Shown: positions 1-7,053 of the stretch, in pieces | How the letters are laid out: each line of letters begins with the position of its first letter | Numbering within the stretch: position 1 is the first letter of the stretch | From: a bacterium | Lineage (GTDB): Bacteria; UBA8248 | Reading direction: 5' to 3' | Assembly: GCA_965202625.1 (NCBI GenBank) | Contig: CBDBBI010000010.1 | Location: 608,001-672,000 of the forward strand | Length of the DNA stretch: 64,000 nt | Made by a program: the position numbers and the translations under genes | The notes under the pieces: generated by a model | What the model was told of the DNA's origin: nothing | Seen by the model: the letters and a program-made list of their open reading frames with translations, nothing else | The model's database searches: none

Positions 1-609
1 AAGACGCTTTCTTGGTTCGTCGCGCATCACCGGGTCTTGTACGCGGGTCTGGCGGGTGTTGTCGTGCTAGCAGCCGTTTTCGTAGGATACCACATGTGGG
101 ATCAACGTGCTCGGGAAAAAGCGTCCTTGGCGTATGGCCTCGCCAAAATCGCATCTCCGGACGGCAAGGGCGAAGCGGTAGAGGCTGCGCTTCAAAAGGT
201 GGCCGCCGATTATCCTCGCTCACGTCCAGGGCTTTTAGCGCGCTTGCGTCTGGCGGCCTTGTTGCGCGAGAGAAAGGAGTATCAGGGTGCGCAGGCACAG
301 TATGAGCTCGTGGCCAAGAGCGGCACCTCAGAGAGCGATAAAGAACTGGCCAAGCGCGGAGCGGCGTCTGTCTTGATGCTACAGGGGGCCTGCGACGACG
401 CTGTATCGATCTGGAAGTCGATTCTCGAAAAAGGGAGTCTCTTCGCGCCTGACGATCTGTATTTGTCCATCGCCGCTTGCCAGGAGAAGCTCGGCAAACT
501 TGAGGAAGCCAGAAAAACTTATGAGGAATTAAGCAAAAAACATCCCGATAGTCCATTCCTGAATGAAGTATATTATCCGCCCAAGTCCCCTAAACATGAT
601 TCATCGTAA
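1..609 (+). CDS. YfgM-like tetratricopeptide-repeat membrane protein, 5'-truncated by the window; C-terminus probably altered by the adjacent insertion
   Basis: Frame open from base 1; N-terminal TM helix (LAGVVVLAAVFVGYHMW), 'VAADYPRSRPGLLARLRLA' and TPR-like helices ending 'KHPDSPF'. Confidence 0.8.
   Translation, partial: KTLSWFVAHHRVLYAGLAGVVVLAAVFVGYHMWDQRAREKASLAYGLAKIASPDGKGEAVEAALQKVAADYPRSRPGLLARLRLAALLRERKEYQGAQAQYELVAKSGTSESDKELAKRGAASVLMLQGACDDAVSIWKSILEKGSLFAPDDLYLSIAACQEKLGKLEEARKTYEELSKKHPDSPFLNEVYYPPKSPKHDSS
556..583. other. Degenerate dif-like/att site (left junction)
   Basis: TTCCTGAATGA-AGTATA-TTATCCGCCCA; the right arm read on the minus strand (TGGGCGGATAA) matches the E. 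coli XerC arm GGTGCGCATAA at 8/11. Confidence 0.45.
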
Positions 610-728
610 GGCTGAGTTGACGAGTAGCCTGAGCCTTCTTCGACGAGCCATGCCGCGAAGAAGAAGAACCCGGCGCCTCTAAGTTGACAATAGACTTCAT
701 AACGACGACGACCACGACCCATACGCAT
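573..728 (-). CDS. 51-aa small ORF with Arg-rich N-terminus (MRMGRGRRRYEVYCQLRGAGFFFFAAWLVEEGSGYSSTQPYDESCLGDLGG)
   Basis: Perfect AGGAGG (734-739) 5 nt before the ATG; CGT/GGT codons; stop TAA lies in the att arm; below the ORF-track size cutoff. Confidence 0.5.
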   Translation of the reverse strand: MRMGRGRRRYEVYCQLRGAGFFFFAAWLVEEGSGYSSTQPYDESCLGDLGG

Positions 729-749
729 ATCAACCTCCTGTCAGCCAGA

Positions 750-777
750 GAAAAGCCGAAGGTATGTTATGATCAAG
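750..777 (+). other. Internal dif-like site
   Basis: GAAAAGCCGAA-GGTATG-TTATGATCAAG; shares AAGGTATrTTATG (12/13) with the site at 1159-1186. Confidence 0.4.
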
Positions 778-779
778 AG

Positions 780-881
780 TCAACTACCAAAATACCAAGC
801 CAAGAAACCACCTAAAAAACCACACAAAATACCAAGAGAAACATAAAACAAACAAGAATCAAACCAATGACGACCACGCAT
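780..881 (-). CDS. 33-aa single-TM peptide (MRGRHWFDSCLFYVSLGILCGFLGGFLAWYFGS)
   Basis: Mostly T-ending codons; hydrophobic GxxxG helix; starts 1 nt after the upstream stop (TAG-T-ATG); a diverged paralogous copy lies at ~1066-1128. Confidence 0.55.
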   Translation of the reverse strand: MRGRHWFDSCLFYVSLGILCGFLGGFLAWYFGS

Positions 882-882
882 A

Positions 883-969
883 CTAAACTTCTTTCAGACT
901 TAGACGAGCCAGCATGACGAGAAGAAGTATGAGATGAAGCCAGACGCCCACGAGCGCCGGGACGCTCAT
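883..969 (-). CDS. 28-aa hydrophobic peptide (MSVPALVGVWLHLILLLVMLARLSLKEV)
   Basis: Translationally coupled to the 33-aa ORF; GAGGAG at 985-990 (long spacer); 5' end lies in a GAGCG/CGCTC hairpin. Confidence 0.35.
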   Translation of the reverse strand: MSVPALVGVWLHLILLLVMLARLSLKEV

Positions 970-988
970 GGTCAATCGAATACGCTCC

Positions 989-1128
989 TCACAGCCGAGT
1001 ACCTTTCAACTTGAAAACCTTAATCATTTTCTGGCCACGACGACAGACCCATACGCATATCGATGTCAATCAAAATACCACGTCAAAGTAGCGGCCAAGA
1101 AACCACCCAAAAAAGCAAGAGAAACATA
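989..1128 (-). pseudogene. Degenerate second copy of the module: truncated TM peptide (YVSLAFLGGFLAATLTWYFD*) and frameshifted basic peptide (MRMG/RRRGQKMIKVFKLKGTRL*)
   Basis: Blocks repeated from 716-898; 37-nt deletion between TATG microhomologies; +1 frameshift near 1045. Confidence 0.45.
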
Positions 1129-1158
1129 CTAAACTTCTTTCAGAGAAAGAAATTCAGT

Positions 1159-1186
1159 TTAGATGATAAGGTATATTATGTAAAAT
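1159..1186 (+). other. dif-like XerC/D site, probably the chromosomal dif
   Basis: TTAGATGATAA-GGTATA-TTATGTAAAAT versus E. coli GGTGCGCATAA-TGTATA-TTATGTTAAAT (XerD arm 10/11); KOPS-like octamers seen to the right mostly point toward it. Confidence 0.7.
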
Positions 1187-1191
1187 AGCAA
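1163..1191 (-). promoter_or_regulatory. sigma70-like promoter overlapping the dif site and reading into the insert
   Basis: TTGCTA-17 nt-TATCAT on the minus strand. Confidence 0.4.
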
Positions 1192-1209: not shown

Positions 1210-2217
1210 TCACGCCTCGCGCCGTGAGAGGTCCGGGTCGGCGTGACCTTCGACATCGATTTCAAACCCCGCGTTTCGAATCATTTGATGTGCTGCTTCA
1301 GGCTTCTGGCCAGGCGTGGTGAGATAGCCGTCCACGAAAATGGAATTAGCGGGGAAGAGCGCTAGAGGCTGCAATTCCCTCAGCTGCGCCTCCCTTCCCC
1401 CAGCGACCCGAATTTCGGAGCGGGGATTGTAAAAGCGCATCAGGCACAAAAGTTTGAGGCAGGTCGTCGGTCCAAGTAGAGGCGTTCCTTCGAGCGGCGT
1501 GCCACCAATGGGATTGAGAAAATTGACGGGGATGGATTCTGGGCCGAGCGCGCGTAGCACCCGGCAAACGGAAATCACGTCATCGACCCTCTCCCCTTGC
1601 CCGAAGATCACGCCGGAGCATAGCTCGAGATTCGCCCGACGCGCCGTGTTCAGGGTGTCCAGCCGATCGTTGTAGGTGTGCGTGCCGCAAATTTCTGAAT
1701 AATAGCGAGCACTCGTGTTGAGGTTGTGGTTGAGGCGGCTAACGCCTGCCTCGCTGAGTCTCTCGGCTTGCTGAGGGGCGAGCAGGCCGAGGGAGCAACA
1801 TATGGAGAGACTATGGCGCGATTTGATCTTGGAGACGGCGCGGCAGATTTTTTCAATTTCCTCATCTGCTGGCCCCCGCGCGCTGATGACGATGCAGTAG
1901 CGTCTCGAGCCCGCCGCCTCGGCTCGCGCTGCTCCCGCAAGGAGTTGAGCCTCATTCACCAAAGCATATCTCTCGATTTGAGCACCGGAAACGGCCGACT
2001 GCGAGCAATACGCGCAATCTTCTGGGCAAATGCCGCTCTTGGCGTTGATGAGGTAGTGAATCTGCACCTTTTTCCCAAAATGGGCGCGACGAACGGAAAA
2101 AGCGGCATCGAGAAGTTTAAGAATGTCGTCGTCCGGCGCATGAATAACGGAAAGCGCATCCTTCCGGCTGAGGTCTTCATCCGTAAGGCTGCGCCGCGCC
2201 AGCGCATGGTAATTCAA
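1210..2217 (-). CDS. bioB: Biotin synthase (radical SAM)
   Basis: CPEDCAYCSQS motif, YNHNL-like LNHNLNTS, SIPVNFLNPIGGTPL, GYLTTPG. Confidence 0.95.
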   Translation of the reverse strand: MNYHALARRSLTDEDLSRKDALSVIHAPDDDILKLLDAAFSVRRAHFGKKVQIHYLINAKSGICPEDCAYCSQSAVSGAQIERYALVNEAQLLAGAARAEAAGSRRYCIVISARGPADEEIEKICRAVSKIKSRHSLSICCSLGLLAPQQAERLSEAGVSRLNHNLNTSARYYSEICGTHTYNDRLDTLNTARRANLELCSGVIFGQGERVDDVISVCRVLRALGPESIPVNFLNPIGGTPLEGTPLLGPTTCLKLLCLMRFYNPRSEIRVAGGREAQLRELQPLALFPANSIFVDGYLTTPGQKPEAAHQMIRNAGFEIDVEGHADPDLSRREA

Positions 2218-2423: not shown

Positions 2424-5318
2424 ATGAAACCTTATGGAAAACTTGAAGATGAATTGCGCAACGCCATTCAGGGTGATGTGCAATTTGACGTTTTCACCCG
2501 AAAAATATACAGCACAGACGCGAGCATGTACCAGATAGAACCCGTGGGCGTCGTCCTGCCCAAGACGAACGCTGACGTGCGAGAGGCGCTCAAAATCGCC
2601 AAGCACCACCGCGCTGCCATCTTGCCCCGGGGGGGCGGCACCAGCCTTGCTGGCCAGACGGTGGGCGAGGCATTGATTCTCGATTTCTCCAAATATATGA
2701 ACCGGGCACTTGAACTCAACGCCGAGGAGGGATGGGCGCGCGTCCAGCCGGGACTGGTGCAGGATCATTTCAACAATTACCTGAAGCCGCACGGCCTTGT
2801 TTTTGGCCCGAATACGTCCACAAGCAGCCGCGCCACCATCGGCGGCATGATGGGGAACAATTCCTCTGGTTCACGTTCCATCGTTTACGGGAAGACGGTG
2901 GACCACGTCATCGAGGTGGCCGGTTATTTCGCCGATGCTGAGCCTTTCTCCTTCGGTCCAAAGGATACGCGTTCTCTCGAATCTCTCATGAATGAGGATT
3001 CGCGTGTCGGCGCGCTTCATAAGGCGATTAAAGATATAGTGGACGCGCATCGAAGCGAGATTGAAGACCGATACCCTAGGATCATGCGCCGCGTGAGCGG
3101 ATACAACCTTGATGAACTCGCCAAGGAGACGCAGCTCTTTAACCTCGCTAAGCTCATGGTGGGCGCCGAGGGCACGCTGGCCGTGACGACGGAAGCCAAA
3201 GTGCGCGTGTGTCCTCTTCCGAAGGCGCTCGGCGTTCTAGTCGTTCACTTCCAAAACATTGAGGAAGCCCTCGCCGCGAGCACGACGATTCTCGCCCACG
3301 ACGTGGCGGCGATAGAGCTCATCGACAGGGTGATCATCGATCTCGCGAAAAAAAATCTCGAAGCCCAGCGCCTCATGCGCAGCTTTGTTGTGGGTGATCC
3401 GGATTGTTTTCTGACTATAGAGTTTTTCGCCGAGAACGACGTTGAAGCGAGGGAAAAGGTCAGACGCCTTCAAGATGAACTGGAGGTGAAAAACGTCGGC
3501 TACGCGCGTGTTCCTCTGGATAACCCCGCACATCAGCAAGATTGCCTGAACATGCGAAAGGCGGGACTAGGCTTTCTCCTCGGACGGCGTGGCGACTGGA
3601 AGCCCTACGCCTTCGTGGAGGATTGTGCGGTGGCACCCGAGCGTCTTTTGTCCTATTACCAGCGCTTCGAGGCTATCCTGAAAAAGTATGGCACGGCTAC
3701 CTCCTACTACGGGCATACGAGCGTGGGCTTGCTTCACCTACGCCCGCTCATCAACATTAAAAACGACGTGGAGGTCAAAAAAATGGCATCCATCGCCGAG
3801 GAGGTTTCCGAGCTTGTGCTCGAATACGACGGGGCCATGAGCGGGGAACACGGGGACGGGCTGGCAAGAAGCCAGTGGGTGCCCAAATTCTTTGGCGAGA
3901 AGCTCTATGACGCATTCTTAGAGGTGAAACGGCTCTTTGACCCGGAGAACCGTATGAACCCGGGAAAAATCGTGAACGCGCTCCCCTTCACCCAGAATCT
4001 GCGCTTTGACGGCTCTTACCAAACCCCTGAGATACCGACCATCATGGATTTTTCGGGCGACGGCGGATTTGCGCGTGCGGTGGAGCTTTGCAACGGGGTG
4101 GGGGCCTGCCGAAAGCGAGACGGCACGATGTGTCCCTCCTATCAGGCGACGCTAGAGGAGGAGCACTCAACGCGCGGGCGGGCGAACGCGCTTCGGGAAG
4201 TCATCGCGAACGGAATCCCCGGAGAGGATTTGGGCAGCGAGCGCCTTTATGAGGTGCTGGACCTTTGCCTGTCCTGCAAGGGCTGCAAGGCGGAGTGCCC
4301 ATCGAGCGTGGACATGGCGAAAATCAAGGCAGAAGTGCTTCAGGCCCACTACGACAAGAATGGGACCCCACTCCGTGCGCGGTTGATGGGACGCATCGCG
4401 CGCGTCAATCGCCTGAGTGCCCCCGTGGCGCCTATCGTGAACTGGACGCTCGCCAACCGCTTCATGCGTTCCCTGCTCGACAGGTTCTTAGGCATAGACA
4501 AGCGCAGGATGCTCCCTCCCCTGGCGACACCCACATTTGAGGAATGGTTTCGAAGCCGCCCCACCGCTCGAAACGCGACCCGCAGAGGAGAGGTTTTGTT
4601 CTTGAACGATACCTTTACGAACTTTCATTACCCGGAGATCGGCAAAGCCGCGGTCAAGGTGCTGGAGGCGGCCGGCTTCGAGGTGGCGCTCGCCGAGACG
4701 GGCTGCTGTGGACGGCCCATGATATCGCACGGCCTTCTGCGCGAGGGCCAAAAGCTGGCGCAGGAGAACGTCGCCCGTCTCTCTCCTGCCATAGAAGCGG
4801 GTTTGCCAATCGTCGGCGTCGAGCCAAGCTGCCTGTTGACTTTTCGGGATGAATATCCAGATCTCGTGGCGGGCGACATGGCCAGGCGCCTGGCGAAAAA
4901 TTCCTGGATGCTCGAGGATTTTTTGCAGAACCTCCATCAAAGGGGCGCGCTCGCCCTGAAATTCAAGGCCCAGCAGCGAGATGAACCGATGAAAGCCTTG
5001 TTTCATGGGCATTGCCATCAAAAGGCTTTGGTCGGCATGGGGGCCTCCCTTGAAGCTCTGGAGATGATCCCCGGTTTGGAGGTGAGCCAGATTCCTTCCG
5101 GCTGTTGCGGCATGGCGGGCTCGTTCGGCTACGAGAAAGAACACTTCGATATCTCCCTCGCCATCGGCGAGACGAAGCTCTTCCCCGCCCTGAGAGAAAG
5201 CGAGGCGAACGCCACGGCGATTGCGAACGGCGTCTCCTGCCGACAGCAGATCGCCGCCGGCACGGGAAAAAAGGCGCTTCACCTCGCCGAAGTGCTGGCG
5301 AACGCACTGGATGAGTGA
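2424..5318 (+). CDS. FAD-binding and (Fe-S)-binding oxidoreductase (YdiJ / GlcD-GlcF fusion type)
   Basis: PRGGGTSLAGQ, SGEHGDG, CNGVGAC, CLSCKGCKAECP and CCG domains. Confidence 0.9.
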   Translation: MKPYGKLEDELRNAIQGDVQFDVFTRKIYSTDASMYQIEPVGVVLPKTNADVREALKIAKHHRAAILPRGGGTSLAGQTVGEALILDFSKYMNRALELNAEEGWARVQPGLVQDHFNNYLKPHGLVFGPNTSTSSRATIGGMMGNNSSGSRSIVYGKTVDHVIEVAGYFADAEPFSFGPKDTRSLESLMNEDSRVGALHKAIKDIVDAHRSEIEDRYPRIMRRVSGYNLDELAKETQLFNLAKLMVGAEGTLAVTTEAKVRVCPLPKALGVLVVHFQNIEEALAASTTILAHDVAAIELIDRVIIDLAKKNLEAQRLMRSFVVGDPDCFLTIEFFAENDVEAREKVRRLQDELEVKNVGYARVPLDNPAHQQDCLNMRKAGLGFLLGRRGDWKPYAFVEDCAVAPERLLSYYQRFEAILKKYGTATSYYGHTSVGLLHLRPLINIKNDVEVKKMASIAEEVSELVLEYDGAMSGEHGDGLARSQWVPKFFGEKLYDAFLEVKRLFDPENRMNPGKIVNALPFTQNLRFDGSYQTPEIPTIMDFSGDGGFARAVELCNGVGACRKRDGTMCPSYQATLEEEHSTRGRANALREVIANGIPGEDLGSERLYEVLDLCLSCKGCKAECPSSVDMAKIKAEVLQAHYDKNGTPLRARLMGRIARVNRLSAPVAPIVNWTLANRFMRSLLDRFLGIDKRRMLPPLATPTFEEWFRSRPTARNATRRGEVLFLNDTFTNFHYPEIGKAAVKVLEAAGFEVALAETGCCGRPMISHGLLREGQKLAQENVARLSPAIEAGLPIVGVEPSCLLTFRDEYPDLVAGDMARRLAKNSWMLEDFLQNLHQRGALALKFKAQQRDEPMKALFHGHCHQKALVGMGASLEALEMIPGLEVSQIPSGCCGMAGSFGYEKEHFDISLAIGETKLFPALRESEANATAIANGVSCRQQIAAGTGKKALHLAEVLANALDE

Positions 5319-5365
5319 TAAATAATCACCAAGAACTTGCCCTACCAGAACAGGAGACCGTCGTC

Positions 5366-7053
5366 ATGTCGCAAACAATCGAGGCTGAGCAACGAAGACT
5401 GGGGCAGATATTCAGCGATGCTTATGATTTTATTATACCTCCATATCAACGCCCTTACGCATGGGCAACGGAACAAACATCCGCTCTGCTTGATGACCTC
5501 CAGACAGCTTCCGAAGCTAAAGAGATAGAGGATATGCCACCCTATTTCCTGGGAAGTATTGTTATTATCAAGAAAAAAGAGAAAGCATTATCCGAAGTCA
5601 TTGATGGCCAACAACGTCTCACGACTCTCACAATCCTACTTTGTGTCCTGCGCGAGCTCATTGAAGACGATGGAGTGCGAGATGCTCTTGATGAGCGCGT
5701 GGTTGCAAAAGGAGACGCTCTTAGGAACGTTGAGGATAGGATGAGATTGCAGTTGCGAGACCGGGACGAGATGTTCTTCAGGGAAAAGATACAGTCCAAG
5801 GGGCATCTGAAAAATTCTTGTTTGAAAGCTCACAGAAGAAGTTGTCGGATAGCCAGAAAGGAATATGCGAAAACGCCCGCTATTTGTGGGATAAACTTAA
5901 GAAAATTTCGAATTCTGACCAATCAAGCCTTGAGAAGTTGGCAAGGTTTCTTGACCAGCGTTGCTATCTGGTTGTCGTTTCCTCCTCAGACATAGATTCC
6001 GCATATCGCATATTTTCCGTGATGAACGATCGGGGCCTCAATCTTTCTCCTACCGACATCCTCAAGGCCGAAATTATTGGCCTGTTACCTGAGAATAGGC
6101 GTTCCACCTACACAAAAAAATGGGATGACCTCGAGGAAGGATTGGGACGCGAGAATTTCAGAAATCTCTTTGCGCATATCCGGATGATCTATATGCAGAG
6201 CAAACAGCAACAAACCTTGGCTCAAGAATTTCGAGAAAGCATCCTAACTCAGACGGAAACGAAAGGCGGAAAATTTATTGACGATGTGCTTATACCGTCC
6301 TCAGAGTCATACCTCATAGTTTTAAACGGGATTGCTCAAGACACCAAAAATGCCGAGGAGGTCAACAAGTATCTTAGGTATCTTCGTCGTCTCGACAATT
6401 CCGATTGGGTCCCGCCCGCAATCGCTTTCTTCAAGCGTTATGAGAATAATTTTGATGCGATTCTTAAGTTTGCACGCGATCTTGAACGTTTGGCTTATGC
6501 GTTATTTATCCGAAGAGCTCGCATCAACGAACGTATCAGCCGCTATGTGGATGTCCTACGCTCGATTGAGAAGGGATACGATCTTTATGAAGAAGCGTCA
6601 CTCCAATTGCAAGATCAGGAAAAGTCTGAGGTTCTTGAAGCACTCGGCGGCCCCATCTATAAGACCCGTTTTTGCAAGCCGTTACTCCTCCGCCTGGATA
6701 GTTTATTGGCCGATGCAGGAGCCAGATATGATCACAAGATAATCAGCGTCGAACATGTCCTTCCGCAAGACCCAAGCCCAGGGTCGAAATGGTTGGAATT
6801 GTTCCCCTGTGAGGAGGAGAGGAAAAACTGGACACACAAGATAGCCAATCTTCTTCTCCTATCGCGGTCAACAAACACGAAAGCGCAAAACTACGAATTC
6901 GAGCGTAAAAAACGAGAGTATTTTGAAAAAAGGGTCGTCACTACCTTTGCTCTCACATCCCAGGTGTTAAACGAATCCGAGTGGACAGTGGATGTCCTGG
7001 AAAAACGCCAACGAGAACTCTTGGAAAAATTGAAAAAAGAATGGCGTCTCTAG
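5366..7053 (+). pseudogene. DUF262/DUF1524 GmrSD-type (type IV) restriction protein, split by one frameshift at ~5810-5814
   Basis: IPPYQRPYAW, VIDGQQRLTT, FSVMNDRGLNL, and HNH-like VEHVLPQ...IANLLLL...N; AGGAG before ATG 5366. Confidence 0.85.

Follow-up and report, generated by a model that had tools for sequence, protein, structure and literature searches.

Elements that exploit the Xer recombinases of their host leave a pattern at the chromosomal dif site in which one intact dif is accompanied by a modified copy, and tandem arrays at dif also occur (sections of PMC7062461, PMC9765430 and PMC12715192). Here we describe a locus in the genome of an uncultured, sponge-associated bacterium of the phylum Nitrospinota, in which an insert of 586 bp lies between a YfgM-like TPR gene and dif, with the bioB gene on the other side of dif. 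The window, that is, the whole stretch of 64,000 nucleotides that was analysed, corresponds to positions 608001-672000 of contig C10 (CBDBBI010000010.1) of a 3.09-Mb assembly (GCA_965202625.1), and the contig bearing dif is 2.9 Mb long. The original prediction for this gap had been a dif-anchored cassette of small open reading frames (ORFs) like those of single-stranded DNA (ssDNA) phages, perhaps mobilized by XerC/XerD. With modest confidence, we lean towards reading the insert as decaying scars or stacked truncated ends of Xer-dependent elements (IMEX), on the XerC-arm side of dif and with a later deletion into the TPR gene, and we favour this reading because the layout matches the literature on such elements.

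The tandem IMEX arrays at dif comprise CTXphi, TLCphi and VGJphi-type inoviruses and the dif-type double-jelly-roll prophages of Vibrio (sections of PMC12715192, PMC6744903 and PMC4246890). These arrays and the insert have in common the position at dif, the lack of an integrase of their own and one working dif at one end, together with stacking in direct orientation and degraded members. A unit of those arrays, however, is the entire genome of a phage or satellite, several kb long and with recognizable genes (Zot, RstR and coat), whereas the units here measure 165-245 bp and carry no recognizable gene, and the host is an uncultured member of Nitrospinota. Prophages of gokushoviruses (Enterogokushovirus) integrate in an XerC/XerD-dependent manner beside an unchanged bacterial dif, and their second, phage-derived dif motif is variable, above all in the spacer and the XerD arm (parts of PMC7062461). 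Such a prophage is 4.3-4.7 kb long, whereas the insert is 586 bp and has neither capsid nor Rep. The coding strand of ssDNA phages is T-rich, and the T-rich coding strand of the insert resembles them in this respect.

In Legionella, the element LME-1 at dif/XerL lies at the GC-skew maximum and has its att site duplicated by integration, so that an intact dif is accompanied by an altered copy, and the alterations stabilize the inserted element (parts of PMC9765430). The intact dif with a modified copy and the position at the GC-skew maximum are also found here, although LME-1 is large, carries genes and depends on a single recombinase, whereas the present genome has two Xer genes and the units are gene-less. 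The pdif modules of Acinetobacter are small DNA modules bounded by Xer sites and are thought to be moved by the host XerC/XerD (parts of PMC7399989 and PMC5790767). They are plasmid-borne and carry resistance or other genes, whereas the insert is chromosomal, lies at a real dif and has no cargo. The sites of pdif modules alternate in orientation, whereas all cores of the insert lie on one strand in direct order. Finally, the type I toxin-antitoxin repeats (Ldr, Ibs/Sib and Hok-type) are arranged in tandem between genes and vary from strain to strain; each module spans a few hundred bp and has a structured leader ahead of a short hydrophobic ORF, and such a repeat is defined by a conserved hydrophobic toxin ORF overlapped by an antisense RNA. 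In the insert the ORFs are not kept between copies and match no family, and the dif cores are unexplained by that model.

The chromosomal dif and the Xer recombinases

To locate dif, we derived a matrix from the 28-bp sites of 20 congeners (the relatives used throughout were metagenome-assembled genomes of uncultured Nitrospinota/Nitrospinaceae). The congener sites have the form nnnnnYGATAA GATATG TTATGTAAAAT and lie in the same gene context in 20/20 cases. With this matrix, positions 1159-1186 of the window scored 39.8 bits, compared with 18.2 bits for the next best position in the genome. The maximum of the cumulative GC skew is a plateau at 606-618 kb of the contig, and dif, at 609,159, falls on it. 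Positions 1159-1186 are the genuine chromosomal dif, the sole strong dif of the genome, at the terminus, and the predicted anchoring of the segment at dif, which required that the true dif should not map elsewhere, is borne out. The names of the XerC and XerD arms are taken over from the dif of Escherichia coli, on the assumption that they apply here.

The genome encodes XerD (TIGR02225, 345 bits, over the cut-off of 329.6) and an XerC-like protein (TIGR02224, 318.9 bits, just under the cut-off of 335), and these two account for both genome-wide matches to the phage integrase domain PF00589. Both tyrosine recombinases score best as Xer and fall far under the cut-offs for integron integrases; with no tyrosine recombinase at the level of IntI in the genome, the locus does not classify as an integron cassette array (IntI + attC). 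Insertion at the host chromosomal dif, and the lack of an own integrase with XerD and an XerC-like protein supplied by the host, are both features of IMEX.

Two further observations concern dif itself. The second-best match to the matrix in the genome (18.2 bits; AATTATGATAT GAAACC TTATGGAAAAC) lies at 2415-2442, on the same strand as dif and 1.26 kb away, and overlaps the start codon of a gene for a 964-aa FAD-oxidase/Fe-S protein. It lies beyond bioB, which is therefore bracketed by dif and a dif-like site. The first seven codons or so and the leader at this position differ in 15 aligned relatives, which makes the site peculiar to this genome; the match may be due to chance in an AT-rich leader. 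The other observation is a G in place of A at position 1173, in the centre of dif (GGTGTA instead of GGTATA), in the main allele of public run X1 (see below). This position is A in all 20 congeners, and the G is known from one contig, 31 nt from its end.

An insert confined to one genome

The distance from the stop codon of the TPR gene to dif is 22-43 nt in 20/20 congeners, compared with 549 nt here; the case that relatives carry the identical interval, which would have spoken against a mobile origin, does not apply. At the metagenome loci with TPR/BioB context (3/3), dif lies about 85 nt past the end of the TPR match, and there is no insert. The insert DNA has no match in 40 relatives and no second copy in its own genome, and in 50 other genomes of the phylum nothing was found beyond chance matches of 20-36 nt, the best of which (24-36 nt, E = 0.001-0.004) were set aside, being at loci without any dif-like site. 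As judged from these comparisons, the insert appears to be specific to this genome among the relatives compared.

The insert is also foreign by base composition. Its GC content is 45.4% over 573-1158, compared with 56.3% for the TPR gene and 57.8% for bioB. The plus strand contains 37% A and 17% T (AT skew +0.37, GC skew -0.20); in windows of 150 nt the GC content goes down to 0.33-0.53, the AT skew up to +0.54 and the GC skew to -0.37.

On the left, the homology of the TPR gene to its relatives stops at about 562, and the last 15 codons and the stop codon (563-609) come from the insert, so that the conserved tail ...SPFLTEQIRAKLGxxKAAK is replaced by ...SPFLNEVYYPPKSPKHDSS. Of 70 other TPR homologues in a large protein collection, none covers more than 93% of the query, and therefore none has the chimeric tail. 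Since the homology ends inside the TPR gene, about 80-90 nt of host DNA was lost with the insertion, and no clean att site is present at the left junction.

The neighbourhood of dif varies in the congeners as well. An RtcB-family gene (about 407-424 aa) directly follows dif in 14/20 congeners (L022-L041) and is absent here and in G004, G006, G007, G015 and G019, and the distance between the TPR gene and bioB ranges from 167 to 1729 bp across the genus. The surroundings of dif are therefore variable within the genus, on the XerD-arm side as well.

We also scanned metagenome contigs for exact matches to the dif consensus, which gave at least 120 stretches, and read 80 of them (L065-L144). The 22-nt dif core GATAAGRTATRTTATGTAAAAT was present in at least 120 contigs, and 77 of the 80 read had no TPR/BioB context, so that this type of dif is shared well beyond the genus, by unrelated organisms. 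Nothing like the insert was found at the 80 loci read, and a low-GC, AT-skewed segment of 500 bp was seen in 0/70 left flanks and 0/69 right flanks of other dif loci. One contig (L140) has another dif-like site at a distance of 593 bp, but its DNA is AT-rich and we discounted the match as due to chance.

Repeated units and dif-like cores

The features of the locus are as follows.

1..609, plus strand: YfgM-like TPR gene (PF09976 and TPR families), chimeric at its 3' end; the window opens inside the gene.
573-1158: insert, 586 bp, between the YfgM-like TPR gene and dif.
556..583, plus strand: S0, leftmost dif-like remnant, TTCCTGAATGA AGTATA TTATCCGCCCA; the core at 563-576 alone resembles dif (12/14).
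573..637, plus strand: left-end piece of unit E1, 65 nt.
584..749, minus strand: unit E1, with an ORF of 51 aa (573..728) that starts with MRMGRGRRRY behind AGGAGG; right end at 723-757.
750..777, plus strand: S1, inner dif-like site, GAAAAGCCGAA GGTATG TTATGATCAAG, with a 13-nt core at 759-771.
778..914, minus strand: unit E2, with a hydrophobic ORF of 33 aa (780..881) and a right-end module (876-910) that includes a 20-nt perfect direct repeat (879-898).
915..942, plus strand: S2, putative weak dif-like remnant; its core AAGAAGTATGAGAT (921-934) aligns with the dif cores when the right ends are aligned.
943..1158, minus strand: unit E3, adjoining dif, with degenerate copies of the Arg-rich start and the hydrophobic ORF.
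1159..1186, plus strand: chromosomal dif, TTAGATGATAA (XerC arm) GGTATA (centre) TTATGTAAAAT (XerD arm).
1210..2217, minus strand: bioB (Radical_SAM and BATS domains); 23 nt separate its end from dif.

The layout may be described as S0 / E1 (about 584-749) / S1 / E2 (about 778-914) / S2? / E3 (about 943-1158) / dif, and the insert thus appears to be a stack of about three related units of 165-245 bp. Self-comparison revealed three homologous right ends (723-757, 876-910 and 1122-1156), each followed after 12-27 nt by a dif-like core, namely GGTATG TTATG at 761, AGTATG AGATG (weak) at 926 and GGTATA TTATG (the true dif) at 1170, and there is an additional core, AGTATA TTAT, at the left edge (567). 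The copies of the 20-nt perfect repeat lie at the ends of E2 (879-898) and E3 (1125-1144). In E3 a 14-bp hairpin (1128-1158) results from pairing of the repeat with 1145-1158; this hairpin is followed by a T-rich run and could equally be the terminator of bioB. The program TRF reported a single repeat only, of 12 nt in 2.8 copies (801-834).

The nonamer GTATATTAT, at 568-576 and 1171-1179, occurs eight times in 3.09 Mb on both strands. The sequence AAGGTAT[AG]TTATG has exactly two copies in 6.2 million positions, both at this locus and on the same strand, and of 11 genome copies of GTAT[AG]TTAT three are at this locus, all on one strand. The core of S0 has eight sites in the genome at up to two mismatches, two of them here, and the 13-nt core of S1, which is common to dif, has exactly the sequence of the dif core in congener G022. 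The arrangement is real and more than chance, and the statistics favour dif cores, not whole 28-bp sites. For S2 the matrix scan gives no support; judged by eye, its core agrees with S0 in 10/14 positions and with dif in 8/14. The module starts at 638 and 899 had also been considered as decayed dif sites and were ruled out by the matrix (-62.6 and -40.9 bits).

Small open reading frames and homology searches

Inside 556-1191 no start-to-stop ORF reaches 60 aa. The longest ORFs are of 54 aa (plus strand, 968..1132) and 51 aa (minus strand, 573..728), and minus-strand ORFs of 33 aa (780..881) and 28/30 aa (883..975) are present. The ORF list and the base composition agree in this with the original prediction, which had noted a gap without an ORF of 60 aa or more, with a strong strand skew and with minus-strand ORFs of 28, 33 and 51 aa. 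The minus-strand promoter that it had placed over dif amounts to no more than two matches to 9 of 12 consensus positions; the scan gave 3 sites in 1 kb, compared with 0.8 +/- 0.9 in shuffled sequences. Note that the T-rich strand gives hydrophobic peptides from every frame. The Arg-rich start (ATGCGTATGGGTC...) recurs in E3 as a frameshifted copy of 12 aa and the hydrophobic 33-aa ORF as a copy of 14 aa, the last two sharing the 20-nt leader. The small ORFs, not being kept intact between units, are not convincing as genes and are probably non-functional.

The peptides have no phage homologues, nor any other homologue, in the libraries searched, an outcome that counts against the original prediction and does not sustain the description as phage-like micro-ORFs. 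With 20 six-frame peptides as queries, the best match in PHROGs had E = 0.011 (phrog_16172, of unknown function) and that in Pfam E = 0.0064 (Mid2, under the cut-off), and both were taken as composition matches. A word-based protein search with the 51-aa ORF gave no candidate, and a full HMMER pass over 1.8 billion representatives gave no convincing homologue, with two matches only (E = 1.5e-4 and 9e-4), to proteins of 2206 and 806 aa, which were spread over 7 and 3 stretches, respectively, and were rejected as repetitive or compositional. In tblastn of two frames against phages we obtained E values of at least 4 or nothing, a weak negative, since the low-complexity filter of BLAST hides such peptides (the ORF8 query of Chlamydia phage Chp2 missed itself); the HMM searches and the shuffle test are free of this weakness. 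The resemblance of MRMGRGRRRY to gokushovirus ORF8 (Chp2) was rejected, its best score of 34 being equalled by 45/300 dinucleotide shuffles, and so was that to the J-like protein of phiMH2K, which scored below shuffles.

At the nucleotide level, blastn of the insert against phages gave matches of at most 55 nt with E values of at least 2 (the best 20 of 24 records), and against plasmids no match. Exact seeds in viral contigs (a 16-mer, 12 loci; a 20-mer, 1 locus; a degenerate 19-mer, 39 loci) gave matches of seed length only, and these loci were not extended by blastn, nor by tblastx, which was run on the 39 loci only. As features of an Inoviridae prophage we looked for a Zot/pI-type ATPase (PF05707) in the genome and for coat and replication genes in the 21 flanking ORFs, and found none. 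The features of a Microviridae/Gokushovirinae prophage (Phage_F, a replication initiator and an Arg-rich DNA-binding protein) were not found either, although the absence of Phage_F (PF02305) from the genome is a weak negative, since the control matched in no genome. No integrase, Rep or capsid family occurs among the 21 flanking ORFs scanned, which lie up to about 12 kb away on each side, and those with a family match look like housekeeping genes. As far as these comparisons go, a phage origin of the insert has no homology support, and 'ssDNA-phage-like' would describe its base composition alone.

These results also bear on the idea of a functional record or immunity locus, in which fragments of past ssDNA phages would be kept at dif and expressed for superinfection exclusion. 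Its layout is what such a locus would have, with sample-variable foreign fragments stacked beside a recombination site. However, no fragment matches a known or metagenomic virus, the units are homologous to each other and not diverse, the integrase, Rep and capsid families are missing from the 21 flanking ORFs scanned, and there is no comparable array at the 80 other dif loci. We consider a memory function very improbable.

The small ORFs also bear on an origin independent of Xer. The insert may be a fast-evolving AT-rich island, made up either of modules for small hydrophobic peptides similar to type I toxin-antitoxin systems or of a 3' untranslated or small-RNA region of bioB, and may have been acquired in one illegitimate event and afterwards expanded by local tandem duplication, in the course of which part of dif was copied by chance. 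In favour of this origin, the insert is joined to the TPR gene illegitimately on the left, within the gene, and the short hydrophobic ORFs (33 aa and the 14-aa copy) stand behind a perfectly kept 20-nt leader, which is sequestered in the 14-bp hairpin in E3; the tandem units also have the 20-nt perfect direct repeats. The plus strand of 577-1165, which is A/C-rich, folds better than shuffled sequences (z = -3.6, equalled by 0/100 shuffles; a calculation from the single sequence), whereas no such effect is seen for the minus strand, which is T/G-rich (z = -0.65). Positions 641-808 are confirmed by a metatranscriptome contig (run X7, an RNA library from a third study), which establishes neither the strand nor actual transcription. 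On the other hand, the hydrophobic and Arg-rich ORFs are broken in the second copy, and no Rfam, Pfam or PHROG family is matched (in Rfam, the four matches to 400-1400, with E = 4-8.7, were all far under the gathering scores). Moreover, a plain duplication leaves the homologous end before each of three dif cores unexplained, as it does the finding that 0/139 other dif flanks are alike. On balance we regard this origin as unlikely.

Variation between samples

Sponge metagenomes are among the public runs that contain the stretch. Logan contigs of four runs were aligned to positions 1-2500 of the window; such contigs are unable to show rare forms or absence. The left junction was confirmed in three runs from two studies. 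A second allele was found in a 3102-nt contig of run X4 (depth 2.6) and in a minor contig of run X1 (depth 2), where it occurs alongside the main allele (depth 7.4). It is identical to the window through 893 and resumes at 1159, the first base of the 28-bp dif, so that 894-1158 is replaced. Between these points are 187 other letters, a piece like 944-987 with four differences, about 67 other letters, a copy of 702-725 and nine letters, and the joints can be written as 893/944 and 725/1159. The alleles are about 590 and 655 nt long, and neither is a full-length prophage. In addition, position 637 is followed by 573 in a 95-nt contig of run X5, a sign that this sample has either a local duplication or another arrangement.

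The predicted stacking of the cassette is supported, and so is its variable content, which differs between samples of the same species. Strains differ in the unit next to dif but have the distal part in common, a pattern to be expected if the working dif is where changes enter.

This polymorphism raises the question of whether the units themselves are mobile, that is, gene-less mini-IMEX or satellites of 150-250 bp that would excise as small circles and re-integrate at dif by the host XerC/XerD, perhaps with a helper phage. They would be the Xer equivalent of miniature transposons, and the array would grow and turn over unit by unit between strains. The dif-like cores in direct orientation that bound the units, the shortness of both alleles, their joint presence in run X1 and the host Xer genes are consistent with such mobility. 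However, circle junctions were seen neither in the viral contigs (0 and 0 matches) nor in the contigs of the four runs, no other copy of the insert occurs in its own genome or in 50 further genomes of the phylum, the inner sites look inactive in view of their degeneracy, the units are mosaic and many indels apart, and the breakpoints of the alleles lie off the sites. This makes mobility of the units themselves distinctly unlikely.

Origin of the insert

If the insert represents scars or truncated ends of IMEX, its formation could be explained as follows. An element with a dif-like attP would recombine with dif via the host XerC and XerD, by which a working dif, consisting of the XerC arm of the element and the XerD arm of the host, would be regenerated on the bioB side, and a crippled hybrid site would be left on the TPR side. 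If this happened repeatedly, or if tandem copies then underwent internal deletion or partial excision, the ends of the elements alone would remain, with three homologous right ends, each then followed by a dif core, as the outcome. A later deletion would have removed the 3' end of the TPR gene, the spacer and most of the oldest site, and the units would now be non-autonomous and decaying. The insertions would thus have been made by Xer, and the units would derive from larger elements.

That the insert behaves like an IMEX remnant is better supported than that it is an IMEX. The latter is weaker because mobility was weakly tested and not seen and because the flanking sites are only half as expected: on the right there is a perfect dif, the inner site S1 shares with it a 13-nt core found nowhere else in the genome but has a poor XerC arm, and the left site has a 12/14 core but is weak as a 28-mer. 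Regarding the circular, transmissible form, neither copies elsewhere nor a circle joint were found, by weak tests (contigs and exact patterns).

Several points weigh against an origin from IMEX. The direct dif-like repeats of the original prediction hold as cores, whereas its left and inner sites are weak as 28-mers: S1 (750-777) scores -5.3 bits, with 455 better positions on the strand and about 0.09 expected per 600 bp, and S0 (556-583) scores -23.3 bits, with 29,131 better positions, which is not above chance, so that only its 12/14 core is notable. The XerC arms of the inner sites are poor, although the model expects well-kept arms, and small deletions (GATAAG to GAAG) must be assumed. On the left, the boundary falls within the TPR gene instead of at an att site. 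None of the allele breakpoints (893/944, 987 and 1159) coincides with a proposed inner site, selection to keep dif could account for the exact stop there, and the second allele is known from contigs of depth 2-2.6 only. No joint of an empty site or a circle was found in the contigs of the four runs, and the predicted circle junctions had 0 and 0 matches in viral contigs in a scan for exact patterns, which is a weak test. Finally, no parent element or homologue of the insert was found in any library searched, and no phage, IMEX or other element of this kind from the phylum was found in the literature searched for Xer-exploiting elements, in which the phylum was not sought by name. For the predicted mobilization by Xer, then, XerD and the XerC-like protein as the sole tyrosine recombinases are in its favour, whereas the missing empty site and circle and the lack of a clean att site at the left boundary are not.

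A separate observation concerns the flanking region. A GmrSD-type gene (type IV restriction) at 5315-7050 of the window appears to be distributed over two overlapping ORFs (5315-5992 and 5818-7050), and the GmrSD_N domain is divided between both, which suggests a frameshift or a pseudogene.

Implications

If the units are merely old debris, the locus represents ordinary genome decay at a known hot spot. If the reading as scars or truncated ends of IMEX is true, the insert would be the first sign of Xer-exploiting mobile DNA in Nitrospinota, with respect to the literature on Xer elements. It would mean that IMEX traffic leaves a short, gene-less and strain-variable array of scars, which is missed by prophage finders and even rewrites the end of a neighbouring gene, and dif sites and past infections could be recognized by such scars in genomes assembled from metagenomes. 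The polymorphism next to dif is a concrete place to seek ongoing Xer-mediated exchange in natural populations.

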